Shown: positions 1,501 through 25,287 of the stretch, piece by piece
How the letters are laid out: the number at the start of each line of letters is the position of its first letter
How positions within the stretch are numbered: the first letter of the stretch is position 1
NCBI GenBank assembly: GCA_963808625.1
Contig: CAWEHK010000044.1
Span: 31,939-95,938, forward strand
Reading direction: 5' to 3'
DNA length: 64,000 bases
DNA from: an uncultured delta proteobacterium
GTDB taxonomy: Bacteria; Desulfobacterota; Syntrophobacteria; Syntrophobacterales; Syntrophobacteraceae
Position numbers and translations under genes: made by a program
The notes under the pieces: model-generated
Databases searched by the model: none
What the model was told of the DNA's origin: nothing
Seen by the model: the letters and a program-made list of their open reading frames with translations, nothing else

Positions 1501-2835
1501 GTGAGCGTTAATGTCATCATGCCGAAGCTGGGTATGACCATGCAGACGGGAAAAGTGTCCAAATGGTCCAAGAAAGAAGGGGATCAGGTGCAGAAGGGTG
1601 AAGAGCTCTTCGAAGTGGAGACCGAGAAGATTACCAACAAGGTCGAAGCCCCGGCCAGCGGAATCCTCTTCCAGATTGTCGTTCCAGAAGGAGCGACCGT
1701 TCCGGTCGGAGCCATTGTGGCGGTCATTGCGGAACCGGGAGAACAGCCCGAACGGATCGAGGGCATTCAGGTTGGTGAAATTGCCGAGGTTGCGCCGCAA
1801 CCGGCGGGCGGGGCGCCGCCACAGGCCGAAGCCGAGAGGCCGAAGGAGCGAAGCGAAATCGTGGCGACGCCGGCGGCCAAACGTCTGGCCAAGGAACTCG
1901 GTGTGGATCTCGCTCTGGTGAAGGGCACCGGACCCGAGGGGCGCATCAGGGAGGCAGACGTTACGCACTACCACGAGGAAGCCCAACGAAAACCCAAGAT
2001 CACCCCGCTGGCCGAAGAAATCGCAAAACAGGCGGGCCTCGATCTATCCACGATTACGGGAACGGGAGAAGGCGGGAAGATCACCCGGGAGGATGTAGAG
2101 CGTGCCCTGCAGCCCAGGCAACCGGTGGTCGCAGAACCAATGAAACCTGCCATGACGATCCCTTTGGCAGGCATGCGCAAGGCCATTGCCGATAACATGC
2201 ACGCCAGCCTTCAAAACACCGCCCAGTTGAGCATGTTTACCGAGGTGGACGTCACCGAATCCCTGCGCTTGGTGAAGCTCATTCGCGAACAGTACAAGGG
2301 GGATGAAGCAGTCAGGGTCTCCATGAACGACGTCGTCATCCTGGCAACATCGAGGGCTCTCAAGCGCTTCCCCATCATGAACTCGACCCAGCTGGGCAAT
2401 GACATCATCCTGCATGACCGCGTCGGTATGGGAATCGCGGTGGCCCTGCCTGATGGTCTGATCGTGCCGGTGCTGCGGGATGCCGATCAAAAGGGACTTC
2501 TGGAGATTGCCCGCGAGGCGAGAGTGCTCATCGGGAAAGCCCGATCCGGCTCCCTCGGGATGGATGAAGTAACCGGCGGGACCTTCACCATCAGCAACCT
2601 CAGCGCATCGTGCGTGGACGCCTTCACGCCCATCCTGCGGCCCCCTGAAACGGGGATTCTCGGCCTCGGGCGCGTGGTGGAAAAGCCGGTCGTTTATCAG
2701 GGCGCAATAACGGCTCGCTCCATCATGGGACTGAGCCTGACCATCGATCACCGGGTGGTTGACGGCGCCCCTGCCAGCGAATTCCTGCAGTTGCTGGTCC
2801 GCTATCTCGAACAGCCGATGCTCATGTTGACTTGA
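1501..2835 (+). CDS. acoC: dihydrolipoamide acetyltransferase E2 of acetoin dehydrogenase
   Basis: Lipoyl domain (VETEKITN), two subunit-binding domains (ATPAAKRLA..GTGPEGRI; ITPLAEEIA..GTGEGGKI), catalytic DHRVVDGA; acoA/acoB nearby. Confidence 0.9.
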   Translation: MSVNVIMPKLGMTMQTGKVSKWSKKEGDQVQKGEELFEVETEKITNKVEAPASGILFQIVVPEGATVPVGAIVAVIAEPGEQPERIEGIQVGEIAEVAPQPAGGAPPQAEAERPKERSEIVATPAAKRLAKELGVDLALVKGTGPEGRIREADVTHYHEEAQRKPKITPLAEEIAKQAGLDLSTITGTGEGGKITREDVERALQPRQPVVAEPMKPAMTIPLAGMRKAIADNMHASLQNTAQLSMFTEVDVTESLRLVKLIREQYKGDEAVRVSMNDVVILATSRALKRFPIMNSTQLGNDIILHDRVGMGIAVALPDGLIVPVLRDADQKGLLEIAREARVLIGKARSGSLGMDEVTGGTFTISNLSASCVDAFTPILRPPETGILGLGRVVEKPVVYQGAITARSIMGLSLTIDHRVVDGAPASEFLQLLVRYLEQPMLMLT

Positions 2836-2851
2836 TGAGGAGGTGCTTCAT

Positions 2852-4228
2852 ATGTTTGACGTGATTGTGATTGGAGGAGGATCCGGAGGATACGCCGCCG
2901 CGATCAGGGCCGCGCAACTCGGTGGGAAAGTCGCCTTGGTCGAAGCTGCCGAAATGGGTGGTACGTGCGTGAACCGAGGCTGCATTCCGAGCAAGATCTG
3001 GATGCAGGCCGCCTCGCTCCTGCACCAGATGCGCAAGGCGCCCGACTTCGGGATCAAGGCCGCCATCGAGGAAATCGATTTCAAGACCCTGGTCGAGCGG
3101 AAGAACGGCGTTTCGGGAGACATCCGGATGGGGATGGATGCGCTCCTCCAGAACAACGGCGTGCAGGTGGTCCGCGGCCGCGCCGTGTTGAAAAGCCCCC
3201 GGGAAATTGACGTGGAGGGCAGGTTGATCGAAGCCCGCAGGGTTATCATCGCCACGGGGAGCTGCCTCGCCTTTCCCGCCGTGCCCGGTCTCGATGAAGC
3301 CGTGATCACCACCGATCAGGTGTTCGAGATGACGGAAGTCCCATCCTCGATCCTGATCTTTGATTCCGGGTATCTCGAAGTGGAGATGGCCTTTCTCCTG
3401 AACGCCTTCGGTGCGAAGGTAATCCTCGCCGCCGCATCACCGCGCATCCTGCCCCACGAAGATCATGACACCAGCCAGAGGATCACGCAGTCGCTGAGAG
3501 AAAAGGGTGTGGAGGTGATCACCCGTCATACGCTCGAAGCCATCTCAAAGGCTGAACCGGGGGTGGGGTGGTCCTGCCTGCTCGCCGGAGCCAAGGAACG
3601 CACCGTCGAAGTGCAAAAGGTGCTGGTCGCCTCGAGAAAGCCGGCGACCGCCAACATGGGGCTCGAAAAGGTTGGAGTGCAATTGAACGACGATGGCGCA
3701 ATCCCCGTGAACAACCGGCTGGAGACTTCTGCGGAAGGCATTTACGCCATCGGTGACGCCACCGGTGGCCGGATGCTGAGCCATGCCGCGTCTTCTATGG
3801 CGATTACGGCGGCGGAAAACTGCATGGGAAGGGTCAGCGTCTATCCCTTCCACCTGGTTCCTCGCGGCCTGTGGACGTTCCCGGAAGTGGGTGCGGTAGG
3901 CCTTTCCGAAGAGGAAGCGGAAAAGCAGGGAAAGGAAATCGAGGTCGGGAGCTTTCCCTACGCCATCAATGGGCTGGCCATGGCGCGCAACGAAGCGGGG
4001 GGCGCGGTGAAGGTGGTGGCGGGCGCTCAGTACGGGGAAATTCTCGGGGTGCATGTCGTTGGGGCCGGAGCCACGGACCTCGTAGGAGAAGCCGTGCTTG
4101 CCATGCAGCTCGAAGCAACCGTAAACGAGCTTGCCCGCAGTATCCGGGTGCATCCGACTTTTTCCGAAACCGTCGTTGATGCCGCCCGCGACGCGGCAGG
4201 CTGGGCTCTCTATTTGCCGAAACGCTGA
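2852..4228 (+). CDS. lpdA: dihydrolipoamide dehydrogenase (E3)-like flavoprotein with degenerate NAD-binding site
   Basis: FAD motif GGGSGG, redox CVNRGC and C-terminal HPTFSE are intact. The second Rossmann motif reads FDSGYLE. RBS GAGGAGG. Confidence 0.9.
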   Translation: MFDVIVIGGGSGGYAAAIRAAQLGGKVALVEAAEMGGTCVNRGCIPSKIWMQAASLLHQMRKAPDFGIKAAIEEIDFKTLVERKNGVSGDIRMGMDALLQNNGVQVVRGRAVLKSPREIDVEGRLIEARRVIIATGSCLAFPAVPGLDEAVITTDQVFEMTEVPSSILIFDSGYLEVEMAFLLNAFGAKVILAAASPRILPHEDHDTSQRITQSLREKGVEVITRHTLEAISKAEPGVGWSCLLAGAKERTVEVQKVLVASRKPATANMGLEKVGVQLNDDGAIPVNNRLETSAEGIYAIGDATGGRMLSHAASSMAITAAENCMGRVSVYPFHLVPRGLWTFPEVGAVGLSEEEAEKQGKEIEVGSFPYAINGLAMARNEAGGAVKVVAGAQYGEILGVHVVGAGATDLVGEAVLAMQLEATVNELARSIRVHPTFSETVVDAARDAAGWALYLPKR

Positions 4229-4245
4229 TTCAGGCGATGACCCTT

Positions 4246-4727
4246 GGAGACTATCTCAAAGCTGCCTCATATCGTCACCCCGGCTGAAGCCCATGCGGGT
4301 CAACTTAAGCATTTGCTATCTACCCCGAAGGGGTTTCATAAGTCAGCCCAGGGTTAGCGAAAGCGCCACCCTGGGTCAGGAGATGCCATAAACCATCTTA
4401 CCCTGAAGGGGTTACATCAAACAGAGTCATGGCGAGCACCCGGATCTGTTATGAAAAATGCTTTTTATGTAACCCTTTCAGGGTATGGATACTTGTTGTG
4501 CACCCATACCCAGGGTGGCGCTTTCGCTGACCCTGGGCTTACCTATACAACCCCTTCGGGGTAAAAGGGGATGCACCATCCTGATCGTGAAAGACTATGC
4601 GCCTTCCATCGCCTTAAATTGACGCCAATGGGCTGAAGCCGGGGTCCAGAACTCCACGGAAAACCTGGATTCCGGCCTTCGCCGGAATGACGAATGAGAG
4701 CGTCTTGACGATTTTGAGATAGTTTCT
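4246..4727. mobile_element. outer MITE with TIR GAGACTATCTCAAA/TTTGAGATAGTTTC containing an RPE-like hairpin
   Basis: Terminal inverted repeats; a related short copy lies at 20452-20582. Confidence 0.65.
4291..4631. mobile_element. inner 341-bp MITE with 8-bp target-site duplication, carrying REP-like doublets
   Basis: TIR CCATGCGGGTCAACTTAAG / CTTAAATTGACGCCAATGG; GCTGAAGC duplicated at 4283-4290 and 4632-4639; internal ACCCCGAAGGGGT and CCCAGGGT..ACCCTGGG palindromes. Confidence 0.75.
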
Positions 4728-4746
4728 TGGGAGGGAGCAGAACATT

Positions 4747-4890
4747 CTATACTCGTTTGGGTTTCAAATCTGCTTTCTGTAGGAGCGGCACTTTGCCGCG
4801 ACCTTGTTGAAATCGCGCCTCAGAGGCGCTCCTACAGGGAAGTTGTGGCTCCATAACGTGAAACTTCTCAACCTGAACCGGTGTAAAAAG
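4747..4890. repeat. dispersed REP/MITE-like element (GTAGGAGCG...CGCTCCTAC core)
   Basis: Inverted copy at ~17893-18052; related GTAGGAGCGGG hairpin at 27077-27180. Confidence 0.6.
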
Positions 4891-4949
4891 AGGGCTCAAG
4901 AAGGCCGGACGGGCAGGGTACAGAATCAAACCATTTCAGGGCGTTGGAA

Positions 4950-6524
4950 ATGAGCGATACCTCAACTCCACACTTACAGGTTCTGGACTGGGGACTCCTG
5001 GATTACGGGGAGGCCTTGAAGCTCCAGGAAGCTTTGGTTTCCGAACGCATCGCGGGTCTTTCTCACGACCGGTTGGTGCTGGTTGAACATCCCCCGGTGG
5101 TGACCATCGGGCGAAGCGGCAACGCCAAAGACCTGCGGGTATGCGAAGAGGTCCTCAAGCACAAGGGGGCGTCGGTATTCCGTATCGACCGCGGGGGTAT
5201 GGCAACATTCCATGGCCCGGGGCAGCTTGTGGCTTACCCGATTCTCAAGCTCAGGGAAAAGGACCTCCACCGGTATCTGCAAAAGCTCCTCAAGGCGGTT
5301 GCCGAAGTGCTCGAAAGCTATGGCCTGAGTCCCGAAATCGGAAGGCACGGGCAGGGCGTCTGGGTGGGTACGGCAAAGATCGCCAGTGTCGGCATTGCCG
5401 TTCGACGGTGGGTCACCTACCACGGGATGGCGTTAAACGTAAACACCGACCTCGCCTGGTTCGACACCATCAATCCCTGTGGGAACCCGGAGGAAACGAT
5501 CACCTCCCTGGAGCGGGAACTGGGGCGCACGCCGGCCATGGGCGAAGTCAAAGACCGTTTCATCGGCGCTTTCTGCCGGATCTTCGAGTATCCCCTGCGC
5601 CCGGAGGTGCGTCAGGTGACAAGAGATCGCCCTCCCTGGCTGGCTCTTCCGGCGCCGTCTCCGGAAGCCCTGCAGCGCATGGGAGCACTGCTCGGCCGTC
5701 TGCAGTTGGGCACCGTATGCCAGAGTGCCGGATGTCCCAACCTGGGGGAGTGCTTCGGCCGAGGGACCGCCACCTTCATGATCCTGGGCGCGACCTGCAC
5801 CCGGACGTGCCGGTTCTGTGGCGTGAACAAAGGCGTTCCTGGCCTGGTGGACGAAGGCGAGCCCGAGCGCGTGGCGGAGGCCGTTGCGGCACTCGGCATC
5901 AGCCACGCAGTCATCACCTCGGTCACGCGGGATGATCTCCCGGATGGTGGAGCCGAGCAATTTGTAAGGACCATCGAAGTGATCCGCAATGGCTGCCCGG
6001 GTGTGACCATTGAAGTGCTGGTTCCGGATTTCAAGGGGTCTTTGAAGGCGCTTCAAAGGGTCTGTCATGCTCGCCCGGAGGTCTTCAATCACAATGTGGA
6101 GACGGTGGCGCGCCTCTATCCTCATGTTCGGCCGCAAGCCCGGTACCAGAGGTCGCTGCAAATTCTCGAATACGCCGCGAGGGAGGGGTTGGTGGTGAAG
6201 TCCGGAATCATGCTGGGACTTGGTGAGACCGAGCGTGAAATCCTGGAGACGATTGCCGATCTCAGACAAACCGGCTGCTCCCGTCTCACCCTCGGACAGT
6301 ATCTGTCACCGTCAAGAGATCACCTGCCCATAGCCAGGTATGTCTCGCCGGAGGAGTTCGAACGGTGGGCGGCAACGGCACGATCGATGGGGTTTCGGGG
6401 AGTGGCGGCGGGGCCTCTCGTCCGGAGTTCCTATCGTGCCGAGGACATGGGCCTTGCGGCTAAGGGGGCGCCCACAAATAAAGAACTTTCTTTTACCACG
6501 AAGAACACGAAGGCCACGAAGTGA
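4950..6524 (+). CDS. lipA: fused octanoyltransferase LipB-lipoyl synthase LipA
   Basis: N-terminal LipB (EHPPVVTIGR, DRGG.ATFHGPGQLVAYPI, KIASVG, NPCG). C-terminal LipA (CQSAGCPNLGEC, CTRTCRFC, RSSY). Confidence 0.92.
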   Translation: MSDTSTPHLQVLDWGLLDYGEALKLQEALVSERIAGLSHDRLVLVEHPPVVTIGRSGNAKDLRVCEEVLKHKGASVFRIDRGGMATFHGPGQLVAYPILKLREKDLHRYLQKLLKAVAEVLESYGLSPEIGRHGQGVWVGTAKIASVGIAVRRWVTYHGMALNVNTDLAWFDTINPCGNPEETITSLERELGRTPAMGEVKDRFIGAFCRIFEYPLRPEVRQVTRDRPPWLALPAPSPEALQRMGALLGRLQLGTVCQSAGCPNLGECFGRGTATFMILGATCTRTCRFCGVNKGVPGLVDEGEPERVAEAVAALGISHAVITSVTRDDLPDGGAEQFVRTIEVIRNGCPGVTIEVLVPDFKGSLKALQRVCHARPEVFNHNVETVARLYPHVRPQARYQRSLQILEYAAREGLVVKSGIMLGLGETEREILETIADLRQTGCSRLTLGQYLSPSRDHLPIARYVSPEEFERWAATARSMGFRGVAAGPLVRSSYRAEDMGLAAKGAPTNKELSFTTKNTKATK

Positions 6525-6600
6525 TTTCTTCGTGCTCTTCTTTTCTTCGTGGTTCGAAAAAGGGCTGAAATGAGTGCAAGTTGTTTTTGGACAGTGTCTA
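6463..6600. repeat. dispersed MITE-like repeat family A with 9-nt (CACGAAGAA/G) hairpin
   Basis: Near-identical inverted copies at 29857-29980 and 43822-43972. Confidence 0.75.
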
Positions 6601-6747
6601 AGTACAGCACCACATGAATGGGTGTCCGATATCCACCCGTCATGCCCGCGAAGGCGGGCATCCAGGATTCTTCTTCTGGATTCCCGCTAAAAGCATGCGG
6701 GAATGACGTCTTGGGGTAATGGTCACGCTATCCGGTGGTGCTGCACT
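6601..6747. repeat. MITE-like element with RPE-type hairpin
   Basis: Ends AGTACAGCACCAC / GTGGTGCTGCACT with internal GTCATGCCCGCG..GCGGGAATGAC. Relatives at ~20584-20728, 43563-43823 and 53210-53360. Confidence 0.6.
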
Positions 6748-6779
6748 CAGGTATCGTGTTGAGTCAAAGGAGTTAAGTC

Positions 6780-7142
6780 GTGGCAGGAAATCGCTTCATC
6801 GTAGAAATAGGGACGGGCATGGACCTTCATGGTGAAGACGTCACCAAGGCGGCATGCCGTGCCGTCAAGGATGCGATCTCGAGCAGTTGCCTGTGCGGCC
6901 TGGTTGAGATTCTCGGGATTCAGGACCTGCAGGCGGTAGAGGTGGAGATCGTCGTAGCCGTGCCGAGACCCCAGGATGTCGATTTGCATCGGGTAATGGC
7001 CGAAGTCCCCATTGGACGCAAGACCGCGAAGGCCATCGAGGGCGGCATGATGACGCAGGGACTGTGTGTCGCTCAGTTTGCTCCCGATTGCAGTCAGATC
7101 GTGGTGGCCAATGCGGCCGTGACCGTATCCATCAACCGGTAG
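6780..7142 (+). CDS. Lin0512 family protein
   Basis: RFIVEIGTGMDLHGEDVTKAACRAVKDAI...VVANAAVTV signature. Confidence 0.8.
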   Translation: MAGNRFIVEIGTGMDLHGEDVTKAACRAVKDAISSSCLCGLVEILGIQDLQAVEVEIVVAVPRPQDVDLHRVMAEVPIGRKTAKAIEGGMMTQGLCVAQFAPDCSQIVVANAAVTVSINR

Positions 7143-7188
7143 CACTAAAGGTTAGGGTCAGTCACAAGAATCCGGTGCAATTACTTGG

Positions 7189-7445
7189 AGGCTGTCTGAA
7201 AATTCAAATTTTGCGCAAAACTCGAAGGAAAAATCCTCCTTTAGACAAGGGGGGAGGTCGCTCGTTCGCTCGTTCCCAAGCTCCAGCTTGGGAACGTAAG
7301 CAGGGAGCTCCAGCTTCCCGTGCCTGTTGAGTATCAGGTGGTATCTATACGTTCGACGAAGCTGGAGCTTCCAAGCAGATGGGTTCCCAAGCCAGAGCTT
7401 GGGAACCAGCTTTAACCAGCTTTAAGGGGAATTTTCAGACAGCCT
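7189..7445. mobile_element. MITE family B with perfect 17-bp TIR AGGCTGTCTGAAAATTC
   Basis: TIRs at 7189-7205 and 7429-7445, internal GTTCCCAAGCTCCAGCTTGGGAAC hairpins. Copies at 20731-20959, ~45310-45510 and ~50159-50331. Confidence 0.75.
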
Positions 7446-7653
7446 TTCAGTCTGTGGGGCAGGTTTTCCAGCCTGCCACTAGTCTGGCAGGCTTGAAAGC
7501 TTGCCCCACCATCAAGCAGGAAGATGAGTCACTTATTTTTGTGGAACCCCTTACGCAAAGGAGGGACTTGGGAAGACCAGCAGCACATTGCGAAGAGTCG
7601 GAGAGAAACTTCAGGATTTCAGCTCAAGAACATTAAGGTGGAGGAATAAAAAG

Positions 7654-8617
7654 ATGGAAATCAGCAATGAGAAAATGATCGACATGTATACGGTCATGAC
7701 CAGGATTCGAACGTTTGAGAGTCGGGTCGCCGAACTTTTCGCCGCAGGGAAGGTTCCGGGCTTTGTCCATCTTTATGTCGGCGAGGAAGCGGTGGCGACA
7801 GGCGTGTGCGGCAATCTCCGCAACTCAGACTACATCACCAGCACCCACCGCGGCCACGGGCATCTGATCGCCAAAGGGGGCGACACGAAGCTGATGATGG
7901 CCGAGCTCTTTGGCAGGAAGACCGGGTATTGCAAGGGCAAAGGCGGATCGATGCACATTGCCGACCGCGACCTGGGGATTCTCGGCGCCAATGGCATTGT
8001 CGGTGCGGGGCCTCCGCTTGCCGCCGGCGCTGCCCTGGCGTGCCAATATCAGGGGAAGGACGATGTGGCGATCTGCTTCTTTGGTGACGGGGCATCGAAC
8101 CAGGGGACGACCCATGAGGCCATGAATCTGGCCAGCTGCTGGAAACTGCCGGTCGTCTTTGTCAACGAAAACAACCTTTACGGCATCTCCTCGTGCACCA
8201 TCAACTCCATGTGCATCCCGAACATCGCGGACCGGGCCAGCGCTTACGACATGCCGGGTGTTACGGTGGACGGGAACGACGTCATGGCCGTGTATGAGGC
8301 GGCCCAGGAGGCGATCAAGCGCGCCCGACAGGGACAGGGACCAACGCTGATCGAGTGCAAGACCTACCGCCACCGGGGCCACTTCGAGGGTGATCCCTGT
8401 GTGTACCGGAACACGAAAGAGCTCGACGAATGGAAAGAGAAAGACCCGATTCCCCGCTTCGAGCAGCGACTCGTTGACCTGCGGCGTGCTGACCCCGGAA
8501 AGAATCGAGGCCATCAAGGACGCCATGAAGAACGAAATCGTGGCTGCGGAGCGTTTTGCTGAAGAGAGCCCCTATCCGGCGGTGGCCGAGATCATGGATG
8601 ACGTTTACACCGTGTAG
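7654..8617 (+). CDS. acoA: acetoin dehydrogenase E1 alpha (TPP-dependent); 1-nt frameshift near 8485
   Basis: PGFVHLYVGEEA, STHRGHGH, GDGASNQG, TYRHRGHFEGD. C-terminus continues in ORF 8390-8617. Confidence 0.9.
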
Positions 8618-8680: not shown

Positions 8681-9658
8681 ATGCCGACCATGACATTTGC
8701 CCAGGCTTTGAATGATGCCCATCGAATCGAGATGCTGCGAGACCCCAACGTCTATATCGCAGGAGAGGACGTGGGCACCTATGGTGGAATATTTGGCGTA
8801 ACGGCAGGACTGATCGACCAGTTCGGCACGAAAAGAGTGCGCGATACGCCCATTACCGAAAGCGCCATCATCGGAACGGCGGTCGGCGCTGCATCGTGCG
8901 GGCTGCGGCCGGTGGTCGAGTTGATGTTCGTTGACTTTATCGGGGTGGCCATGGATCAGCTTTTCAACCAGGCTGCCAAGATGAAGTACATGTTCGGCGG
9001 CAAGGCAAAAATCCCCATGGTTCTGAGAGCCACGTGCGGGGCGGGAATCGGCGCTGCCGCTCAGCATTCCCAGTGTCTCGAAGCTTGGTTCATGCACGTC
9101 CCCGGCCTCAAGGTGGTGATGCCGAGCACCCCCTACGACGCCAAAGGGCTGCTCATTGCCTCCATTCGGGACAACAACCCGGTGGTTTTCCTCGAACACA
9201 AGATGCTTTATGCAAGAGAAGGCGAAGTTCCCGAGGGGGAATACACCGTGCCCCTGGGTAAGGCCGATATCAAGCGCGAAGGCAAAGACGTTACCGTGGT
9301 CGCCACTGCCCAGATGGTGCATGTCGCCCTGGGTGCCGCGGAGAAGCTGGCTGCCGAAGGGGTCAGTGTCGAAGTGGTAGACCCTCGCACCCTGTCGCCC
9401 CTGGATGAAGAGACCATTCTGAACTCGGTGCGGAAGACCCATCGCCTGGTGATCGTGACCGAGGAAGTGAAGTTTGCCGGCTCGAGTGCCGAGATTGCCG
9501 CCATTGTTTCGGAAAAGGCATTCGATCGCCTGGATGCTCCCATCCTCCGCGTCGCGGCGCCGTTTGTGCCGGTGCCGTTCTCCCCGGTTCTGGAAAAGGA
9601 GTACGTCCCCAGCGAAGAGAAGGTCATTCAGGCAATCAAAACGGTGATGGAATCGTAG
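8681..9658 (+). CDS. acoB: acetoin dehydrogenase E1 beta
   Basis: GEDVG, DTPITE, AAQHSQ, FLEHK, PVPFSP motifs. Confidence 0.92.
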   Translation: MPTMTFAQALNDAHRIEMLRDPNVYIAGEDVGTYGGIFGVTAGLIDQFGTKRVRDTPITESAIIGTAVGAASCGLRPVVELMFVDFIGVAMDQLFNQAAKMKYMFGGKAKIPMVLRATCGAGIGAAAQHSQCLEAWFMHVPGLKVVMPSTPYDAKGLLIASIRDNNPVVFLEHKMLYAREGEVPEGEYTVPLGKADIKREGKDVTVVATAQMVHVALGAAEKLAAEGVSVEVVDPRTLSPLDEETILNSVRKTHRLVIVTEEVKFAGSSAEIAAIVSEKAFDRLDAPILRVAAPFVPVPFSPVLEKEYVPSEEKVIQAIKTVMES

Positions 9659-9681: not shown

Positions 9682-10686
9682 TTGTCACTCGTGGGAATCG
9701 TTGCCAATCCGGCGTCCGGCAAGGATATTCGGAGACTGGTGGCTTACGGCAGCTCCTTTGATAATCAGGAAAAGGTGCGGATTGTGCGCCGTGTCCTCCT
9801 GGGCCTGCAGGCTGTGGGTGTGGACCGTATCTGCTACATGCCCGACTACTACGGAATCGTGCCGAGAGCTCTGGACAGCTTGAAGATTGATATCCCCATT
9901 CACCCGTTGGATTTCGACACGAAAGCGGACCAGCGAGACTCAACCGAAGCGGCGCGAATTATGGAGAAAGAGGGCGCAACCTGTATCGTCACTCTCGGGG
10001 GGGATGGGACCAATCGTGTCGTGGCCAAAGGGACAACAAGGGTCCCCATCCTGCCGATTTCCACGGGAACCAACAATGTTTTCCCCTTTATGGTCGAAGC
10101 CACGGTAGCGGGACTGGCCGCCGGTCTGGTTGCCACAGGGGCGGTGCCGTTGGCGGAAAGCACCTTTCTCTCCACCAGGCTGAATGTCAAGGTGGACGGA
10201 GAGGTTGTAGACCTGGCCCTGGTCGATGTGGCCGTTTGCAGCGACCTGTTTGTGGCATCGAGAGCGGTGTGGGACCTCCGGAAGGTGAATCAGATCTTCC
10301 TGAATCGCGCCGAACCGGACTCCATCGGCCTCTCTTCCATCGGGGGGCTGCTGCACCCGGTGACGGCGGAAGAACCGTACGGCCTGTGCCTCGATCTTGG
10401 GGGCCGCGGACGCTCCGTCAAAGCGCCGGTGGCCCCGGGAATTATTGAACGAGTCTTTGTCAAGGACACGCGCATCATGCGTGTGGGCGAGGAAGTGGAG
10501 ATCCGCAGCGTACCCTCAGTCCTGGCCCTGGACGGTGAACGGGAAGTGGAGGTGCGGCGGGGGCATCACGCTGCCATCCACCTCTCTGAGGAAGGTCCCG
10601 TGGTGGTGGATGTGAAGCGGACCATGAACAGTGCCATGAAGAGGAGGATTCTGGTTCCGGCACTGGACGATGAAGGAACCGCCTGA
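9682..10686 (+). CDS. acoX: acetoin catabolism protein X (ATP-NAD kinase family)
   Basis: ANPASGKDIRRLVA, LGGDGT.R, STGTNNVFP, ALDGERE. Confidence 0.88.
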   Translation: MSLVGIVANPASGKDIRRLVAYGSSFDNQEKVRIVRRVLLGLQAVGVDRICYMPDYYGIVPRALDSLKIDIPIHPLDFDTKADQRDSTEAARIMEKEGATCIVTLGGDGTNRVVAKGTTRVPILPISTGTNNVFPFMVEATVAGLAAGLVATGAVPLAESTFLSTRLNVKVDGEVVDLALVDVAVCSDLFVASRAVWDLRKVNQIFLNRAEPDSIGLSSIGGLLHPVTAEEPYGLCLDLGGRGRSVKAPVAPGIIERVFVKDTRIMRVGEEVEIRSVPSVLALDGEREVEVRRGHHAAIHLSEEGPVVVDVKRTMNSAMKRRILVPALDDEGTA

Positions 10687-12206: not shown

Positions 12207-12302
12207 GAACGGAATCTTTGGCCGAACGATTATTTCTTGCCATGCACCTTAAAAGCTATGGGCACTGAGGCCGCATGAGTCCCACAACATCCTGAAATAT
12301 CT

Positions 12303-16219: not shown

Positions 16220-16242
16220 AGCGAGGCATTGGGAGTTGCAGG

Positions 16243-17806
16243 ATGGAGACCTGGCGGCTTTTGGATACACCACCCATGACGGCGGCGGAGAATATGGCGC
16301 TGGATGACGCCCTCGTGGAGCTCAAGGGGGGCGGCGCCACCCCGAACACCATCCACTTCCTGCAGTTTTATCCGCGAGCCGTGCTGGTCGGGTTTCATCA
16401 ATCGGTTAAGAAGAGGTGCGCACCGAATACTGCCGGGCTCATGGGATTCATGTCAACCGGCGCATCACGGGAGGGGGAGCGATCTTCTTCGATGAGAGCC
16501 AGCTCGGCTGGGAAGTCATCTGTGACAAGTCGTTCTTTGACATGGCACTCCCGACCGGAGGGCTTTTCAGGGCGCTCTGCGATCCCGTCGTCACGCGCGC
16601 TGGCGATCCTGGGTGTGGAATCCGCCTTTCGCCCCCGAAACGACATCGAAATCAACGGTCGCAAGATTTCCGGAACGGGCGGGACCGAGAGCGATGGTGC
16701 GTTTCTCTTCCAGGGTACGATGCTCACTGACTTCGACGTGGATACCATGCTGAAGAGCCTGAGAATACCCATCGAGAAACTCAAAGCAAAGGAAATCGAC
16801 TCGATCAGGGAACGGGTCACCTGCCTCAAATGGGAGCTGGGGGTTACGCCGCCGCTGGAAGACATCAAGCGAGCGATTCGGACGGGGTTTGAGCAACACC
16901 TGGGAATCAGGCTCGAACCGGGAGAGCTGACCGCTGCCGAGAGGCAGCTCTTTGAAGAGAAGCTGGAATATTATCAGTCCTCAGAGTGGATCGACCATGT
17001 GAAGCCCGAATTCGAGAAGGGCGAGGTCGTGCAGGCGGCGCACAAGACGGACGCCGGGCTCGTTCGCTTCACCCTGGTCGTCAATCTCCCTCGCAAGAGG
17101 CTGAAGGATGTCTATATCACGGGCGATTTCCTCTCTTTTCCCACGCGGGCGCTGTTCGACCTGGAAGCGAGGCTGAGGGGAGTTCCGCTCGACTACGGCC
17201 ACATCCGCCGTCTTGTCGTGCGATTTCTTTGAGGAAGGACGAATTATCGTCCCCGGCATGTCGTCCGAAGATTTCTGCAAACCCATCGACCAGGCCCTCC
17301 AGAAGGTCGCGATCGCGAACTGCGGCATTCCTCTCGAATACTGCAACCTGATTTCCGTAACCAATGGTTCGTTCGAAGGGGTCATGCGCAAAAAGCCGTC
17401 GGTACTGCTTCTACCCTATTGCGCCAAGCTGCCTGCCTGCGACCTGAGATATGGAAAGACCTGCCGGGCCTGCGGTGAATGTTCGGTCGGGGCCGCGTGG
17501 AGCATGGGCTGTGAACGAAGCATGCGAAACGTCTGTATCACCAGTTTCGAGGATCTCATGGCCGAGCTCGAGAAGTTGAAGGCGTCGGGAACCGAAGCCT
17601 TCATCGGCTGCTGCTGCCAACCCTTCTTCATCAAGCACATGGACGATTTTGCGCGAGCCGGGGTGCCCGGCATCCTCCTCGAGATCGACAACACCACCTG
17701 CTATGAACTGGACCAGGCAAAACAGGCCTATGCCGGGAGCTTCACCAGCCAGACGGAAGTGAATCTCGATTTGCTTCGCGCCGTGCTGGAGGCAGATCTG
17801 GCCTGA
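16243..17806 (+). CDS. lipoate-protein ligase (LplA catalytic plus accessory domain) fused to a Cys-rich DUF116 domain; frameshifts ~16410, ~16595, ~17225
   Basis: WRLLDTP..AAENMALD, NRRITGGGAIF, NDIEINGRKISGTG, ITGDF; C-terminal LLLPYCAK..C..C.C..GCCC. Confidence 0.82.
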
Positions 17807-17830
17807 GGGCATGGGAGTTTCCAATTTCTT

Positions 17831-18089
17831 ACCACGAAGACCACGAAGAGCACGAAGAGCACGAAGAGCACGAAGAGGATCACAAAAATTATTCAAACCG
17901 GTCAGGGTTGAGATCTTTCACTTTGCTGGCGTCACCGCTTCCTTGCTGGTGTCATGGCTTCTCTGCAGGGGCGCCTCTCCGGCGCGATTTTATCAAGGTC
18001 GCGGCAAAGTACCGCTCCTACAAGAAGCGGAGTCTAACCTTAACGAGTATATGCTCTTCTCTTCGTGTCCTTCGTGTTCTTCGTGGTGA
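17831..18089. repeat. inverted 9-nt repeat arms (CACGAAGAG)n/(CTTCGTGT)n interrupted by a GTAG-type element
   Basis: Arms at 17831-17878 and ~18056-18089; the insert matches 4747-4890 inverted. Confidence 0.65.
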
Positions 18090-18135
18090 GATATAGTTAT
18101 GAGGTCTTCTCGAAGGGCGGTAACTTAAAGAGATA

Positions 18136-19201
18136 ATGCAAACACGGACGTGCGATATTCTTGTTGTCGGGGCGGGTCCGGCCGGGACATCGGCCGCCCG
18201 GGAAGCTGCTGCACGAGGGGCCCGCGTGGTCGTGGTGGAGCGCCGGGCCGTGATCGGCGTGCCGGTTCGGTGTGCCGAGTACATTCCAGCGCCTCTTCTC
18301 GGTGAGGCGGGTGTCGGCCGCCATTTTGTCGTCCAGCCTGTACGAGGAATGAGGACCTTTTTGAATGGACGCCTTATCCAGGAAACCATTGCCCCGGGCT
18401 ACACCATCCGAAGGGAACTCTTCGATCAGGCCTTAGCGGGCGCGGCAAGCCTTGCAGGCGCTGCCATTCTGCTTTCAACCGCAGCCGTATCCAGAGATCA
18501 TGACGAAGTGCTCGTCAGACAGGGTAGGGGGCAGTTCTCAAGGATCAAAGCAAAGGTGATCATTGGCGCTGATGGTCCTCACTCCATAGTGGGGAGATGG
18601 ATCGGCTCGGTGAACAGGAATCTGATTCCGGCTGTTCAGGTGAGAGCGCCTCTGAGTCGCCCATGGACTTCACCGAGGTCTTTTTCGATGACCGGATCTA
18701 CGGTGGCTACGGATGGCTGTTTCCGAAAGGTGATGAAGCCAACGTCGGCCTGGGCATGAGGCATGGTGGCGGGAGTAATCAAAGAATCGGGAGAATGCTC
18801 GATGAACTCCTCTCTTTGCTGCGCAAACAGGGAAAAATCAAAGGCAAGCCGCGCGACATCCTGGCGGGATGGATCCCTGCCGAAGCCCCGCGGATGATAA
18901 CCCAGGCGAACGTTGTCCTGGTGGGCGATGCCGCCGGACATACGCATCCCATTACCGGCGCCGGGGTTCTGCAAGCCGTGGTCGGCGGCCGCATGGCAGG
19001 GAAATGGGCTGCACGTGCCGTTGAAGCAGAGGACATGAGCTTTTTGCAGGCATACGAATCCGGCATGGCGGGATTTCTATGGGGAGACACTGCAAAGGGG
19101 CTTTGATCGCCGCAAGTTGATGGAAGGGGAGTTGGAACCGGCTTGAGGAGATCATCAGATATTGTTGGGTGGCCTTCAGGGAGTACTATTGCCGGACTTG
19201 A
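18136..19201 (+). CDS. geranylgeranyl reductase-like FAD oxidoreductase (LipT-type); frameshifts ~18660 and near the 3' end
   Basis: VVGAGPAG, PVRCAE, IIGADG, GYGWLFPK, LVGDAAG.THPITGAG. Confidence 0.78.
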
Positions 19202-19420: not shown

Positions 19421-20428
19421 ATGGCACAGGAAAGCCCCGCCAAAGTCAAGTGTAAAGGGATCAATCAGATTGCCATCGTGGTGGAAAACCTGGAACTGGT
19501 GGCGAAAAACTACTGGGAGATTTTGGGTATCGGACCCTGGGCTGTCTTCGATTGGGAGGCGCCCCTGGTCTATGATCGGAAGTACCATGGAAAGGCGGCT
19601 TGGGCGAGAGAGAAGATCGCCCTGGTGCAGGTGGGAGGAGTGCAGCTTGAACTGGTCCAGCCCGTGGATGGTCCGTCCATATACCGTGACTTTCTTGACG
19701 AGCACGGCGAGGGGATCCACCACATGAATTTCCTGGTGGATGATGTGGATGAAGCAGTCGAAATATTGGTTAAAGAAGGGTTCCCCAGCCTGCAGAGCGG
19801 CAAGTTCGGTCCAAGGGACCAGGGAGGCGCATACAACTACCTTGATATCAAGCCGCTTCGAGCCATCTGGGAACCCGTTCATATGGGAGAAGAAATCGGC
19901 GCAGAGCCGATTATGTTTCCGGATACGAAAGGGGAAAGCCCAGCCAAAGTCAAGTGCAAAGGAATCAATCAGATCGCCATCGTGGTGAGAAACCTGGAAC
20001 TGGTGGCGAAAAACTACTGGGACATTCTGGGCATCGGCCCCTGGGCTGTCTTCGATTGGGAGGCGCCCCTGGTCTATGATCGGAAGTACCATGGAAAGGC
20101 CGCCTGGGCGAGAGAGAAGATCGCCCTGGTGCAAGTGGGAGACGTGCAGCTTGAACTGGTCCAGCCCGTGGATGGTCCATCCATATACCGTGACTGGCTT
20201 GACGAGCACGGCGAGGGGATCCACCACATGAACTTCCTGGTGGATGATGTGGATGAAGCTGCCGAAATTCTGGTGAAAGAAGGATTCCCCAGCCTGCAGA
20301 GCGGCAAGTTCGGCCCAAAGGACCAGAGAGGCGCTTACAACTACCTCGATATCAAGCCGCTTCGAGCCATCTGGGAACCTGTCCATATGGGGGAAGAAAT
20401 AGGCGCAAAGCCGGTTACGTTCCCATAA
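19421..20428 (+). CDS. VOC (methylmalonyl-CoA epimerase/glyoxalase-like) protein with internal 168-aa tandem duplication
   Basis: INQIAIVV, QLELVQP..GPSIY.D.L.EHGEGIHH, IWE, all repeated with a 504-bp period. Confidence 0.85.
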   Translation: MAQESPAKVKCKGINQIAIVVENLELVAKNYWEILGIGPWAVFDWEAPLVYDRKYHGKAAWAREKIALVQVGGVQLELVQPVDGPSIYRDFLDEHGEGIHHMNFLVDDVDEAVEILVKEGFPSLQSGKFGPRDQGGAYNYLDIKPLRAIWEPVHMGEEIGAEPIMFPDTKGESPAKVKCKGINQIAIVVRNLELVAKNYWDILGIGPWAVFDWEAPLVYDRKYHGKAAWAREKIALVQVGDVQLELVQPVDGPSIYRDWLDEHGEGIHHMNFLVDDVDEAAEILVKEGFPSLQSGKFGPKDQRGAYNYLDIKPLRAIWEPVHMGEEIGAKPVTFP

Positions 20429-20451
20429 CCGAACATTGAGTACAGTGCTAA

Positions 20452-20959
20452 GGAACTATCTCAACATGGTCAAAATGCCGTTGATCGTCATTCCGGCGAA
20501 AGCCGGAATCCAGTTTTTCTTAGGGATTATGGACCCCGGCTTGCGCCAGGGTGACAGGGTAAGCCAGTTTTGAGAAAGTCTCTAAGCGCAGGGCCGCATG
20601 AATGAGTGCCCGATATCCAACCGTCATGCTCGCGCATGCGGGCATCTGGGCGTTGCTTCTGGATTCCCACCAAGGCATGCGGGAATGACGCTTCAGGATT
20701 ATGGTCACGTTAATGTACGGACCTGTATGAAGAGCCTGTCGGAAAATTGCCGCTTAAAGCTGGTTCCCAAGCTCTGGCTTGGGAACCTACCTTGTTGGAA
20801 GCTCCAGCTTCGTCGGAATTGTCGATCCTACCTGATACCAAAGACATACGGGAAGCTGGAAGCTTCTGTGTCCGCGTTCCCAAGCTGGAGCTTGGGAACG
20901 AGCGAACGAGCGAGCCACCGGCTATACCGGTGGTTAACTCTGACTTTTGGACAGGTTCT
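20452..20959. repeat. stack of three adjacent MITE/REP-like elements
   Basis: 20452-20582 (family of 4246-4727), ~20584-20728 (family of 6601-6747), 20731-20959 (family B). Confidence 0.65.
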
Positions 20960-20979
20960 AAGTAATTCGGGTAGGTACG

Positions 20980-21924
20980 ATGCAGCATCTCAATCGGAAA
21001 ATTGACCAAGCCCGGGAGCTCAGTTGGCAAACGTTTGGCAAACGAATTACCTTCTTCCTCCCCGGCATGTTTTCCTGCAACGGCCATTCAGGTAAATATC
21101 CCGCCTTTTCAATTACTGGCCCGGACTGCCGACTTCAATGCGAACACTGTAAGGCGAAGATCCTTGAGTCCATGATTCCTGCGCGTGAACCGGAAGTACT
21201 TCTGGAGAAATGCCTTCAGCTTGAAGAGAAGGGCAATTCAGGGGTCTTGATCAGTGGTGGCTGCGATGAAGAAGGCTGCCTGCCCTGGGGCAAGTTTGTC
21301 CCGCCATAAAAGAGGTGAAAAGACGGACAGACCTCAGGATCTCCGTCCACAGCGGTTTTGTCACCGAGGCGATGGCTTTTTCCCTTAAGGAAACAGGGGT
21401 CGATCAGGTGCTGGTAGATGTTGTCGGAGACGACGAAACGTACCGAAGAGTCTATCACCTGGAATCCGGCGTCTCCAAGCTTGTTGCCTCCCTCAGGGCG
21501 CTCCGGGAAGCGGGACTGACGATCGTTCCCCACATTTGCTGCGGACTCGATTTTGGAAGAATCAGGGGAGAAAGAAAGGCCATCGAACTGGTTTCCCGGT
21601 TCGAAATAGGGCTTTTGGTGTTCATTTCGCTCATGCCGATTCCGGGTACTCCGATGTGGGGCAAAGCAATGCCCGAGGCCGATGAGGTGGCTGAACTGAT
21701 CGTTGCAGCCCGGCTAAAGATGCCCCGTACGCTAATCAGCCTGGGATGTGCTCGGGAAAGGGGCAACAGGCGTCTGGAAATCCTGGCAATCGATGCGGGA
21801 ATAAACCGCATGGCGCTGCCATCAGAAGAGGCCTTGAACCGGGCGAAGTACTACGGCCTGGAGATTAAATATCAGAGAACCTGCTGTTCCGGTGGGCGAA
21901 GAAATCCCTGATGCAGGATGGTAG
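20980..21924 (+). CDS. lipS1: radical SAM lipoyl synthase subunit, LipS1 type; frameshift ~21300
   Basis: SITGPDCRLQCEHC, LISGGC, LGCAR and C-terminal TCCS motifs. Confidence 0.75.
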
Positions 21925-22024: not shown

Positions 22025-23125
22025 ATGGAAAAAGGAAGTCCGGAAAGCCCCCGCCACCTGAGAATGAGCCTGGCTGCAGCGATGACCCTGGGCTTTCAAC
22101 CCGGCCTCTTTTACCGGAATGCCCGGCTCCATTGCATCAACCTGCTCTTGACGTACGGCACGGGCTGCTCCGCCAGGTGCTCGTATTGCGGCCTATCCGG
22201 CAGCCGCCCCGGGATTCCTTCAGGGAAAAGCTTCATCAGGGTCACCTGGCCGACTTATCCCCTGGAAGACATCATCCGGAGCATCTCGAAGCGCCAGGAT
22301 AAGGTTAAGAGAATCTGCATCTCGATGCTGACCAACCAGCGCGCGGTGCAGGATACGAAAGAGGTTTGCGCAAGGCTGCGGGCAAGCTTCGATATCCCGG
22401 TCTCGCTGCTGATTTCACCCACTCTGGTCAGCTACCAGGATCTGGTGGACTTCAAGACCGCCGGAGGGGACAAAATCGGGGTGGCTATTGACCTGGCAAC
22501 GCCTGCACTGTTTGATCGTTACCGGGGCGCCGGTGCGGGAGGCCCTCATCGATGGGAGACTTACTGGAGCTGTCTTGCCGATGCCATCCGCGTCTTTGGG
22601 AACGGTAATGCAGGGTCTCATTTCATGGTAGGGATGGGCGAAACGGAAAAGGAGATGTGCCGGGCCATTCAGCGGGTCAGAGACCTGGGAGGACGTACGC
22701 ATCTCTTCTCCTTTTTTCCCGAAGCCAACTCGGTCATGGCAGACCATCCTCAACCTCCCATGGACCAATATCGCCGTATCCAGTTAGCCCGCTTCCTGAT
22801 TGATAACGGAGCAAGCAGGGCCGACCAGTTTGTCTATGACGCCCGTGAGCAGCTTACGGATTTTGGCATTCACCGGGAACTGCTCGAGGACACCATCGAT
22901 TCCGGCGAACCTTTTCGCACCAGCGGCTGCGCTGGCTACGACGGGGAAGTCGCCTGCAATCGTCCTTACGCAAACGATCGTCCGGGACCAGGCATTCGGA
23001 ATTTTCCCTTCCGCCCGAATAGAGCGGATATAAGGCGGATTCGGATGCAGATGAAGCCGCCACGTCACAACCGATCCGAGACGCAAAAAGACGGCGTAAG
23101 AAGAAGGGCGCAAGAAGATGATTGA
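22025..23125 (+). CDS. lipS2: radical SAM lipoyl synthase subunit, LipS2 type
   Basis: CSARCSYC, FIRVTWP, FRTSGC.......ACNRP. Confidence 0.78.
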   Translation: MEKGSPESPRHLRMSLAAAMTLGFQPGLFYRNARLHCINLLLTYGTGCSARCSYCGLSGSRPGIPSGKSFIRVTWPTYPLEDIIRSISKRQDKVKRICISMLTNQRAVQDTKEVCARLRASFDIPVSLLISPTLVSYQDLVDFKTAGGDKIGVAIDLATPALFDRYRGAGAGGPHRWETYWSCLADAIRVFGNGNAGSHFMVGMGETEKEMCRAIQRVRDLGGRTHLFSFFPEANSVMADHPQPPMDQYRRIQLARFLIDNGASRADQFVYDAREQLTDFGIHRELLEDTIDSGEPFRTSGCAGYDGEVACNRPYANDRPGPGIRNFPFRPNRADIRRIRMQMKPPRHNRSETQKDGVRRRAQEDD

Positions 23126-23208
23126 CAGACCGGAGCCTTATGCTGCATCTATTGATAAAATAATACTACCGGGAACAATGCCGTAAACCTCCATACGAGG
23201 AGGTTATT

Positions 23209-25287
23209 ATGTACAGGCTGGTCCGCGTCGAAGATCAGTTTCAAGTAGTTGAGGGAAGCGTATCCGGGGACACACTTCCCCCCCATCAAGCCCAACCTCC
23301 CGATTTCCAGGAAACCATCGCCCCGCTCTGGAATCCATGCACACAACTGGAGAAGCAGTTCTGGAGGGATTTCGTAAGAACCGGAAGTGCCAGGCCGGCC
23401 CAGGTGCGCAGCACCATCATCGAGTCCTGGGAACGGTGCCGAAAGGTCAATGTGGAATTCGACCGGGGCAAATGCTGGGACCTCATTTCCGGAAGCGAGC
23501 TGGAGAAAAGAAGGGGCTTGCTGTGTGAGATCTCCGAGCCCATCATGGAAACCCTCTATCAGTGCGTGCGCGGTTCGGGCCAGGTGATCGTGCTGGTGGA
23601 CAAAGATGGATATATCCTCGCCAGCCTTGGTGATTTGACGTCACTCCGGCAGGCCGAGAAGCTGAACTTCGGACCCGGAGCCAACTGGTCTGAACGCAGT
23701 GTCGGTACTAATGCGATCGGCACGGCGCTGGCAATAGGGCTCTCGCTGCATGTCACCGGCGCCGAACATTATTGTGAAACGCACCATACGTGGACCTGCG
23801 CTGCAACGCCCATCCGTGATCCGGAGGGGGGGATCATGGGGTGTCTGGATATCTCCGGCCCCCGTGAGAAGGCCCATTTCCACAGCCTCGGAATGACCGT
23901 GGCCGCCGTGCGCGCCATCGAAGAACGATTGCGTCTCGAACAGTCACACGAATACTACCTGAATGTGAGCAAACATCTTGCGACCGTCTTCAATTCGGTC
24001 TCGGAGGGACTCATCACCATCGACAATCGGGGGCAGGTCACCGCGATCAATATGTCGGCAGCCAGGCTTTTGAATCTGCACCCGAGGGACCTCGTCGGAA
24101 GGCCCATCGATGAGATCGTACGAATGGACCATAAACTTCGCAGTTTCATGGATACCGGGCGGGAATACGCTGAGGAAGAATTGCTGCTGAAGTCGGAAAA
24201 GGGAGCGGTGCGCTGCATCGGGTCCGCGAATCCCATCTGCGGCGAGAATCGATCGAGACTGGGGGCGGTGCTTACTTTTACTAAAATGAAAAGATCTTTT
24301 CATTCCCCAAGTGGGAGCGGGACGGAAGGGGCCGATACCCGATTCCTGTTCAAGGACATTATCGGTGAAAGCCTGGTCATGCAGGAAACCCTGGAAAAGG
24401 CGAAACGATTTGCCAAGGGGCCTTCCACCATTCTCCTGCTGGGTGAAAGCGGCACCGGCAAGGAGCTGTTCGCCCAGGCAATTCACAATGCCAGTGATCG
24501 CCGGAACGGGCCCTTCGTGTCGGTCAGTTGCGGCGCCATACCCGGAGAATTGATCCAAAGCGAGCTTTTCGGCTATGTCGAAGGGGCCTTTACCGGTGCA
24601 AAGAAGGGAGGCCGTCCCGGAAAGCTCGAACTGGCGAATGGAGGTTCTATCTTTCTGGATGAGATCGGTGAGATGCCGCTCCCTATGCAGGTGAATCTCC
24701 TCAGGGTGCTGGAAGAAAGGGCCATCGTGCGCGTCGGAGATAACCGGGTTATCCCCGTGGATGTGAGGATCATCGCGGCAACGAATAGGAGCCTCTATGA
24801 AGAAGTTTCGAGAGGGAGATTCAGGGAGGATTTGTTTTATCGGTTAAACGTTATATCCATAATTCTGCCGCCGCTAAGAGAGCGAACCGGCGACATAACT
24901 TTATTGACTCAATATTACGCGGATCGGATATCCCGAAAAGTCGGCAAGCTCGTCAAGCATATAGAACCGGCGGTTTTGGCGACCCTTGAGGCATACCGCT
25001 GGCCCGGTAACGTGCGGGAACTCTCCAACGTTCTCGAGTACGCCATCAATATGCTGCAGGGTGAGGAATTGTTGATCTCTCATCTGCCTCCTTATATGAA
25101 GAAGAAACAAATATCGGAACCGCTCCTTGAAGATATGGACATCATCCCCCTGGACTTGATGGAAAAAAGGGCCATCCAAAACGCCCTCGTCCACTTTGGC
25201 GGCAACATAACCAAAGTCGCCAATGCGCTCGGCATCGGCCGCAACACCTTATATGATAAAATGAGAAAGTACGGGATTCGGGCTTGA
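23209..25287 (+). CDS. acoR: sigma54-dependent activator (GAF-PAS-AAA+-HTH), AcoR family
   Basis: SWERC, WSE..GTNAIGT, GESGTGKE, GAFTGA, LGIGRNTLY. Confidence 0.9.
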   Translation: MYRLVRVEDQFQVVEGSVSGDTLPPHQAQPPDFQETIAPLWNPCTQLEKQFWRDFVRTGSARPAQVRSTIIESWERCRKVNVEFDRGKCWDLISGSELEKRRGLLCEISEPIMETLYQCVRGSGQVIVLVDKDGYILASLGDLTSLRQAEKLNFGPGANWSERSVGTNAIGTALAIGLSLHVTGAEHYCETHHTWTCAATPIRDPEGGIMGCLDISGPREKAHFHSLGMTVAAVRAIEERLRLEQSHEYYLNVSKHLATVFNSVSEGLITIDNRGQVTAINMSAARLLNLHPRDLVGRPIDEIVRMDHKLRSFMDTGREYAEEELLLKSEKGAVRCIGSANPICGENRSRLGAVLTFTKMKRSFHSPSGSGTEGADTRFLFKDIIGESLVMQETLEKAKRFAKGPSTILLLGESGTGKELFAQAIHNASDRRNGPFVSVSCGAIPGELIQSELFGYVEGAFTGAKKGGRPGKLELANGGSIFLDEIGEMPLPMQVNLLRVLEERAIVRVGDNRVIPVDVRIIAATNRSLYEEVSRGRFREDLFYRLNVISIILPPLRERTGDITLLTQYYADRISRKVGKLVKHIEPAVLATLEAYRWPGNVRELSNVLEYAINMLQGEELLISHLPPYMKKKQISEPLLEDMDIIPLDLMEKRAIQNALVHFGGNITKVANALGIGRNTLYDKMRKYGIRA

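Follow-up and report, generated by a model that had tools for sequence, protein, structure and literature searches.

During acetoin cleavage, the E1 and E2 components of acetoin dehydrogenase yield acetaldehyde and acetyl-CoA and leave E2 in its dihydrolipoyl form, and the flavoprotein E3 normally uses the electrons to form NADH (the reduced form of nicotinamide adenine dinucleotide, NAD). Five lipoate-dependent complexes have been characterised in addition to LbpA, according to Cao et al. (PMC6067878). In Pelobacter carbinolicus, a free lipoyl disulfide carrier named LarG was proposed, from the genome alone, to act between a membrane complex and E3 (PMC3543383). Here we describe a gene cluster in a 64,000-nucleotide stretch of DNA from an uncultured member of the Syntrophobacteraceae (contig CAWEHK010000044.1, positions 31,939 to 95,938; hereafter the window). 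Pfam and NCBIfam scans together with three-frame translation delineated 18 co-oriented genes at 1501-25287, all on the + strand. The best explanation of this cluster is that acetoin (and butanediol) catabolism is joined to an exchangeable redox module. We consider it fairly probable, from the comparisons below, that electrons would pass from the dihydrolipoyl group of E2 to the disulfide of E3, from there to a free lipoyl carrier, and then to an HdrD-like enzyme and a membrane cytochrome, without NAD.

The E3-like flavoprotein (2852-4228) passes TIGR01350 (440 bits, cut-off 409) and keeps an intact flavin adenine dinucleotide (FAD) site, the CxxxxC motif and the His-Glu dyad. Its NAD site is altered. 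The first Gly of the NAD loop is replaced by Asp and the third by Glu, no acidic residue stands at the end of the second strand, the Gly of the GRxP motif is missing, and the Ala/Arg pattern of NADP-type enzymes is absent as well. The roles of these loop residues are known from Rossmann-fold biochemistry. We compared the window protein, together with its 119 top-ranking homologs, with the E3 of the host's glycine-cleavage system and an equal number of its own best homologs, scoring the NAD signature as GxGxx[G/A] plus an acidic residue that closes the second strand. The full signature was found in 0/120 window-type E3s and in 120/120 controls. Window-type E3s, which form one branch in a quick tree (support 99), keep the FAD glycines and both cysteines in all 119 sequences covering them, and the His and Glu in 120/120. 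The third Gly is Glu in 119 of the 120, the first is D/R/E/N/K in 45 and the second is D/N in 23. Judged by these residues, the E3 linked to the module appears to have lost its NAD-binding site.

Several observations weigh against this reading. In 103/120 E3s (not in the window protein), an Asp or Glu stands one position further downstream than the lost acid, the change of the third Gly to Glu is nearly fixed, and identity in the NAD domain is modestly lower than in the controls (0.64 versus 0.68). Because of these three features, the residues make a remodelled nucleotide site in E3 possible. In family f25, four of 14 control loci have the Gly-to-Glu change yet keep the acid, which speaks against a simple loss; moreover, the controls represent one E3 lineage and the related genomes are not independent. 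A second module-linked E3 clade (L062, L067, L074, L134, L136, L154 and L168) shows the Ala and Arg that mark glutathione reductase, and by this pattern it may use NADP; if true, an NADP-linked E3 would itself be unusual. On account of this clade, we rejected the idea that all module-linked E3s are nicotinamide-blind. E3 could be imagined to bind NAD(P) through a remodelled site, with the carrier and the membrane complex working as an NAD(P)H:quinone/cytochrome oxidoreductase, or in reverse, and recycling the NADH of the butanediol and acetoin steps. The shifted acid and the second clade speak for this, as do the invariance of the nicotinamide-side Glu and of the Arg of GRxP, the established need of an outlet for the NADH made by Bdh, and the LarG proposal in Pelobacter (PMC3543383). 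The frequent replacement of the first and second glycines speaks against it, and the window E3 has neither the acid nor the Arg; we regard this explanation as unlikely. The altered E3s carry the annotation of ordinary dihydrolipoamide dehydrogenases, and metabolic models therefore count NADH that is possibly never made.

The distribution of the altered E3 was assessed along with that of the block formed by the cytochrome, the carrier and the HdrD-like protein. Two collection scans gave 160 loci, the top 80 being taken in each from over 600 matches. An HdrD ortholog of at least 55% identity was present in 148 of them (the 12 below were dropped), and 136 loci remained after removal of 12 near-duplicates; each count below leaves out loci with flanks too short for it. 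The block proved to be conserved across Desulfobacterota. The carrier adjoins the HdrD ortholog in 106/110 loci, the cytochrome lies beside it in 68/68, a ligase is found at 54/84 and LipS1/S2 at 24/84, and gcvP was found at none of the 136. Across 400 genomes sampled evenly from the phylum, the HdrD ortholog occurred in 22, with a carrier ortholog in all 22 (within 3 kb in 21). The altered E3, at 54% identity or above, was present in 14 of the 400 genomes; 11 of these 14 also have the HdrD ortholog, 10 of them within 4-10 kb. Of the 378 genomes that lack the HdrD ortholog, only three have the altered E3, and in all three a related carrier neighbours other CCG proteins: in G420, a variant comprising two carriers, an FAD oxidase and a CCG protein adjoins E3, and in G361 and G404 the carrier lies between HdrC/HdrB and a GlcD/F fusion, away from E3. 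Two points count against the relay, namely the four carrier-less loci among the 110 and the altered E3 of G404, which has no module in the 20 kb examined. The distribution is patchy: the module was found in one of 40 near relatives, there too beside two diol-dehydrogenase-like genes. The closest homologs of the module belong to Syntrophobacteraceae (76-78%).

The original prediction had tied the block to acetoin dehydrogenase, and had named occurrence without aco genes in relatives as one half of what would speak against it. The neighbourhood survey found just such occurrence, and commonly. Among the 58 loci with at least 7 kb upstream, 19 have E1/E2/E3 genes and 33 have an FAD oxidase of the GlcD type, a second CCG protein or both, a GlcD/GlcF-like dehydrogenase class that is often accompanied by lactate racemase and TRAP or lactate transport. 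The two partner classes exclude each other, with both present at 0/58 loci and neither at 6/58. Because there are two partner classes and no locus shares them, the redox block is, on gene neighbourhood, an exchangeable module that is not acetoin-specific. Some loci differ in other ways. An OsmC-like gene directly follows HdrD in six (L065, L078, L081, L084, L087 and L150), and at L219 (9773-12887, genome G070) the module has a shorter, six-haem cytochrome, with no dehydrogenase partner found by the queries used. Plasmid searches gave matches of at most 41% for E3 and about 60% for E1, none with an informative name.

The stand-alone lipoyl carrier (14607-15029; isoelectric point 4.8) contains an ESGKW motif, shared by 113/113 carriers, and its lipoyl Lys is invariant in the 66 carriers aligned. 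LbpA proteins are marked by two conserved cysteines close to the N- and C-terminal ends (PMC6067878; bioRxiv 10.64898/2026.10.01.755906). At the position of the N-terminal Cys, the 113 carriers have Tyr (96) or Phe (3) or are unmatched (14), and one of the 113 has a Cys within its last eight residues. The module carriers formed a branch of their own (support 96-99), separate from four LbpA-like rows with two Cys (97), in a quick tree with weak deep forks that included no named LbpA. By its residues, the carrier is not an LbpA, contrary to what had been predicted. It also falls outside the GcvH branch of the quick tree, lacks the VKA-type motif and has no gcvP/T link; in one NCBIfam model it does score above the GcvH subfamily cut-off, and an ESM Atlas search returned only GcvH-family clusters. 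As stated in the original prediction, none of the 59 open reading frames scanned in the window is a gcvP, gcvT or sHdr gene. Neither sHdr nor sulfur transferase genes were detected among the window frames or the recurrent neighbours scanned, the whole genome not having been searched for sHdr.

The carrier could instead be a lipoylation helper or a sulfur carrier, the redox block adjoining the aco genes by chance of position. The block does occur without E1/E2/E3 genes in 39 of the 58 long loci, and its patchiness and the GcvH cut-off passed by the carrier fit this view. Against it, E2 has LipB-LipA in the cluster, the host genome has a separate gcvH-gcvP-E3 cluster (contig C31), the LbpA cysteines are absent, the altered E3 tracks the module and the partner classes strictly exclude each other (19 versus 33, none shared). 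We hold this explanation to be very improbable.

The HdrD-like protein (15031-16219) has two cubane motifs and, as originally predicted, two CCG domains (Fer4 plus two CCG domains by family scan), and its ten CCG cysteines are invariant in 61/61 homologs. EtfD and EMO use CCG domains without catalysis, a His blocking one cluster and a Cys being lost from the other (PMC13083937; bioRxiv 10.64898/2026.08.18.745454). At the position of the blocking His, 129 of 136 HdrD-like proteins have Ser or Thr (CPSC/CPTC, 7 unmatched), and the EtfD-type His was never seen. The cysteine pattern is therefore predicted to be that of a catalytic Hdr of the HdrB/HdrD type. The HdrD-like clade may figure in the domain phylogeny of bioRxiv 10.64898/2026.08.18.745454. 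DsrM, DsrK, TfrB and TmcB models scored far below their cut-offs for the module proteins. A 733-residue frame at 15031-17232, which would make HdrD and the ligase one fusion, was rejected as a frameshift artefact; homologs have 395 residues, longer forms not having been searched for.

The cytochrome (12303-14164) is a fusion of an 11-haem cytochrome c with a five-helix cytochrome b of the EtfD/EMO/NarI fold. The 11 CXXCH motifs predicted earlier are real, though split over two frames (6 + 5); intact homologs are single frames of about 600 residues with 11 motifs in 56/68 and 10 in 12/68. They also have about eleven further conserved His, and an N-terminal hydrophobic stretch was read by eye as a signal peptide. 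In a model of the L020 homolog (predicted local distance difference test, pLDDT, 82), the membrane part matches EtfD (Z 14.8, root-mean-square deviation 3.9 over 231 residues) and NarI (Z 9.7); these structure searches covered the membrane domain and barely tested the c-haem part. In the cytochrome b, three His are invariant, as is an Arg that follows the first of them by ten residues (68/68). This cytochrome had been predicted to be NarI-like, whereas the two-haem cytochromes b of the NarI type have four His ligands (NarI numbering). Three His are the pattern of EtfD, EMO and HdrE (for EMO and HdrE, bioRxiv 10.64898/2026.08.18.745454).

EtfD (PDB 9OJN) is the closest solved relative of the HdrD-like protein (profile E 1.9e-53) and of the cytochrome b part, and its clusters transfer electrons from a flavoprotein and do no thiol chemistry, which tells against the proposed relay. 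The HdrD-like/cytochrome pair could act like EMO/EtfD and take single electrons directly from a flavin, in E3 or a GlcD-like oxidase, the carrier being an adaptor or serving another purpose; catalysis is not obligatory for non-cubane domains, and the three-His cytochrome b is as in EMO. The proximal-cluster His, the lost distal Cys and the fusion to a membrane domain that mark EMO and EtfD are all missing here, however, and the carrier retains its Lys and often has its own ligase, even without a nearby E2. ETF genes were not found among the recurrent module neighbours scanned. Action of the EMO type seems to us a slim possibility.

In the relay that we favour, the cysteine pair of E3 would accept two electrons that it could not hand to NAD+, and the free lipoylated carrier would re-oxidise E3 at the same disulfide site, in a ping-pong manner. 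The reduced carrier would then diffuse to the HdrD-like protein, whose two non-cubane clusters would oxidise the dithiol, as suggested by Hdr chemistry. The two cubane clusters would then conduct the electrons to haem b, from which either menaquinone or the eleven periplasmic c haems would receive them. LipB-LipA would lipoylate E2, and the module's own ligase, with LipT, LipS1 and LipS2, would lipoylate the carrier. The core of the original prediction gains sequence support from an E3 without NAD signature and from the ten cysteines of an HdrD-like protein without the EMO His; what has to be given up is an LbpA as carrier and a module bound to acetoin.

Menaquinone has a potential of about -0.07 V and lactate of about -0.19 V. 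With lipoamide at -0.29 V (PMC6067878), transfer from lipoyl to menaquinone is downhill. Outward transfer to the periplasmic haems would be aided by the membrane potential at the cost of dissipating it, as would fit reverse electron flow towards H2 or formate. The route may therefore be energy-conserving, one of the two options first proposed, or energy-spending. For the GlcD class, transfer from lactate to lipoyl is uphill; a pull by the membrane potential would therefore be needed, unless electrons flow in the opposite direction. Here lies a weakness of a broader reading, to which we give tentative credence, somewhat short of even: that in Desulfobacterota a free lipoylated 'KW'-type protein serves generally as a two-electron dithiol/disulfide carrier, a protein-bound counterpart of CoM-S-S-CoB and DsrC, and connects NAD-blind E3s, GlcD/GlcF-like hydroxyacid dehydrogenases and HdrABC-Flx with CCG enzymes and with a haem wire across the membrane. 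The broad 'KW' type of carrier occurs in 64 of the 400 sampled genomes, with HdrC/HdrB and fusions of FAD oxidase and CCG domains as neighbours. A natural 1391-residue fusion, P0122, comprises three GcvH-like (carrier-like) domains, an FAD oxidase, Fer4 and two CCG domains; its existence speaks for the relay, and the lack of the ESGKW lysine motif in its carrier-like domains speaks against it.

Carriers were also seen in other settings. At L220 (8285-19542, genome G087, family f12), a haem-c-free cytochrome b, an HdrD-like gene and a carrier are arranged head to head with genes resembling HdrC-HdrB-HdrA and, probably, Flx, and all 12 sampled genomes of family f12 have such a carrier. At L232, L235 and L237 (families f25 and f32), the carrier lies beside fusions of FAD oxidase and CCG domains (GlcD/F) of 820-860 residues, without a cytochrome and accompanied by lactate racemase or HdrC/HdrB.

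Every gene named in the original prediction is present in the cluster. An AcoC-like E2 (1501-2835) with one lipoyl domain keeps the lipoyl Lys and the catalytic DHRxxDG motif. Downstream of E3, a LipB-LipA fusion (4950-6524), also fused in eight cluster-19 loci, represents canonical lipoylation, probably for E2. It is followed by a Lin0512 family protein (6780-7142, family scan), an AcoA-like E1 alpha (7654-8617), an AcoB-like E1 beta (8681-9658, family scan), an AcoX-like protein with an NAD-kinase fold (9682-10686, family scan) and a Zn-dependent alcohol dehydrogenase (10833-11891), probably a butanediol dehydrogenase, a substrate suggested by its context. The acoX gene is a typical member of acetoin dehydrogenase clusters (PMC3543383), and the window unites E1, E2 and E3 with acoX, an activator and a diol dehydrogenase, as expected of an acetoin dehydrogenase system. 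An acoA-specific model gave no match for the window E1 alpha; we infer acetoin as the probable substrate from acoX, the alcohol dehydrogenase and the activator.

An SRPBCC protein (14179-14601) stands between cytochrome and carrier, and a fusion of lipoate:protein ligase with DUF116 (16243-17806) follows HdrD. The tight packing of 1-23 nt noted earlier holds, the gaps from cytochrome to ligase being 14, 5, 1 and 23 nt (HdrD stop at 16219). The tail adds genes beyond the earlier list: a LipT-like flavoprotein of the geranylgeranyl-reductase family, named from context (18136-19201), two radical SAM genes and a PAS-sigma54 activator resembling AcoR/DhaR (23209-25287). LipS1 and LipS2 are the best families for the radical SAM genes at 20980-21911 and 22025-23125, both scoring under the NCBIfam cut-offs (218 bits for an intact LipS1-like homolog, cut-off 230; 216-220 bits for LipS2, cut-off 270). 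A glyoxalase/epimerase-fold gene in the tail (19421-20428) is internally duplicated, its halves at 19429-19728 and 19933-20232 being 94% identical in DNA, and the homologs in L015 and L020 are likewise doubled. This gene and SRPBCC (2/136 loci) were considered as core parts of the module and rejected.

The original prediction had placed the cluster under a sigma54 promoter. One -24/-12 promoter-like site (1416-1432, +), the only such match in the window, does lie 69 nt before the first gene; since 18 of 100 shuffles reach one (chance expectation 0.2 per window), the match is weak alone. Scans for sigma70 promoters and terminators gave matches at or below chance. The gene blocks are separated by six gaps of 255-721 nt, which weighs on the assumption of a single transcript. 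Most of these gaps (4229-4949, 6525-6779, 7143-7653, 11892-12302, 17807-18135 and 20429-20979) contain dispersed palindromic repeats of several families, some of them 85-112 nt long and 80-83% alike between gaps.

Eleven one-base frameshifts hit acoA (near 8481), the cytochrome (12890 and 13475), HdrD (16080), the ligase (16408, 16595 and 17218), LipT (18650, 19061 and 19125) and LipS1 (21300). As rpoB of the host assembly is also fragmented, in five pieces, and is whole in two relatives, these are most likely assembly errors, and intact homologs were used in place of the affected genes. A further sign of such errors is a phosphoglucose isomerase gene (53673-55104, -) split over two frames. 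The host genome has dsrA and a futalosine-pathway menaquinone gene. It also contains two further E1 alpha/beta pairs, on contigs C23 and C43, the C23 pair having no E2/E3 match on its contig. Elsewhere in the window are a cluster of CO dehydrogenase, ferredoxin-like protein and pyridine-nucleotide oxidoreductase genes (45580-49949, -), a row of caspase-FGE fusion, DUF4384 and CHASE2 cyclase genes (32566-37184, +) and a TIR-domain gene (58265-59371, +).

What would be new here, as far as the sequences indicate, is an E3 lineage without NAD signature, linked to a free carrier and an HdrD-like block. A literature search, with most subscription papers outside it, yielded neither an account of the module nor one of an E3 devoid of the NAD site, and the parts searched of PMC2702500 and PMC10553843 contain nothing on lipoyl carriers. 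If the relay is true, it would be a new way to wire lipoate-dependent complexes to respiration or reverse electron flow, and it offers orphan CCG proteins in sulfate reducers and syntrophs a candidate thiol partner. Under the broader reading of a general carrier, an acetoin or 2-oxoacid dehydrogenase complex would for the first time be seen to be oxidised without nicotinamide, and many such CCG proteins would gain their partner. LipS1/S2 occur widely in bacteria other than sulfur oxidisers, 58% of the bacteria with LipS1/S2 lacking sHdr (PMC10332631), and the carrier is a candidate target for them in such organisms. Hosts of the module exist in culture: L083 (Desulfovibrio desulfuricans SFAD67), L091 and P0289 (Desulfomonile tiedjei).

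Among known systems, HdrDE of Methanosarcina likewise combines two cubane and two CCG domains (ten Cys) with a neighbouring five-helix, three-His cytochrome b; it differs from the module in that the host here is bacterial, the proposed substrate is a lipoylated protein and 10-11 periplasmic c haems form a fusion with the cytochrome b. We take DsrMK/DsrC of sulfate reducers to be comparable as well. EMO of Syntrophus aciditrophicus and EtfD of Mycobacterium smegmatis (PDB 9OJN) give the best solved match for the HdrD-like protein and the membrane domain, but are fusions where the module has two genes without blocking His or lost Cys. The sHdr-LbpA system with sLpl(AB), LipS1, LipS2 and LipT (PMC6067878, PMC10332631) shares a free GcvH-like GKW carrier, a CCG partner, an own ligase and LipS1/S2/LipT-like genes; here, the LbpA cysteines are absent, the carriers branch separately, the partners are organic-substrate dehydrogenases, and the recurrent neighbours scanned include no sHdr or sulfur-transferase genes. 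The acetoin system of P. carbinolicus (acoABCSL, acoX, acoR, budX) also clusters E1, E2, E3, lipoyl synthase, lipB, acoX, activator and diol dehydrogenase (PMC3543383), to which the window adds the cytochrome-carrier-HdrD block and an E3 without NAD signature, Pelobacter AcoL being compared by cluster content only. In the LarG proposal, likened here by description and not by sequence alignment, Act is the membrane complex, and the role assigned to E3 is the reduction of NAD. We regard the module as a variant of the Hdr-type thiol:membrane oxidoreductases.

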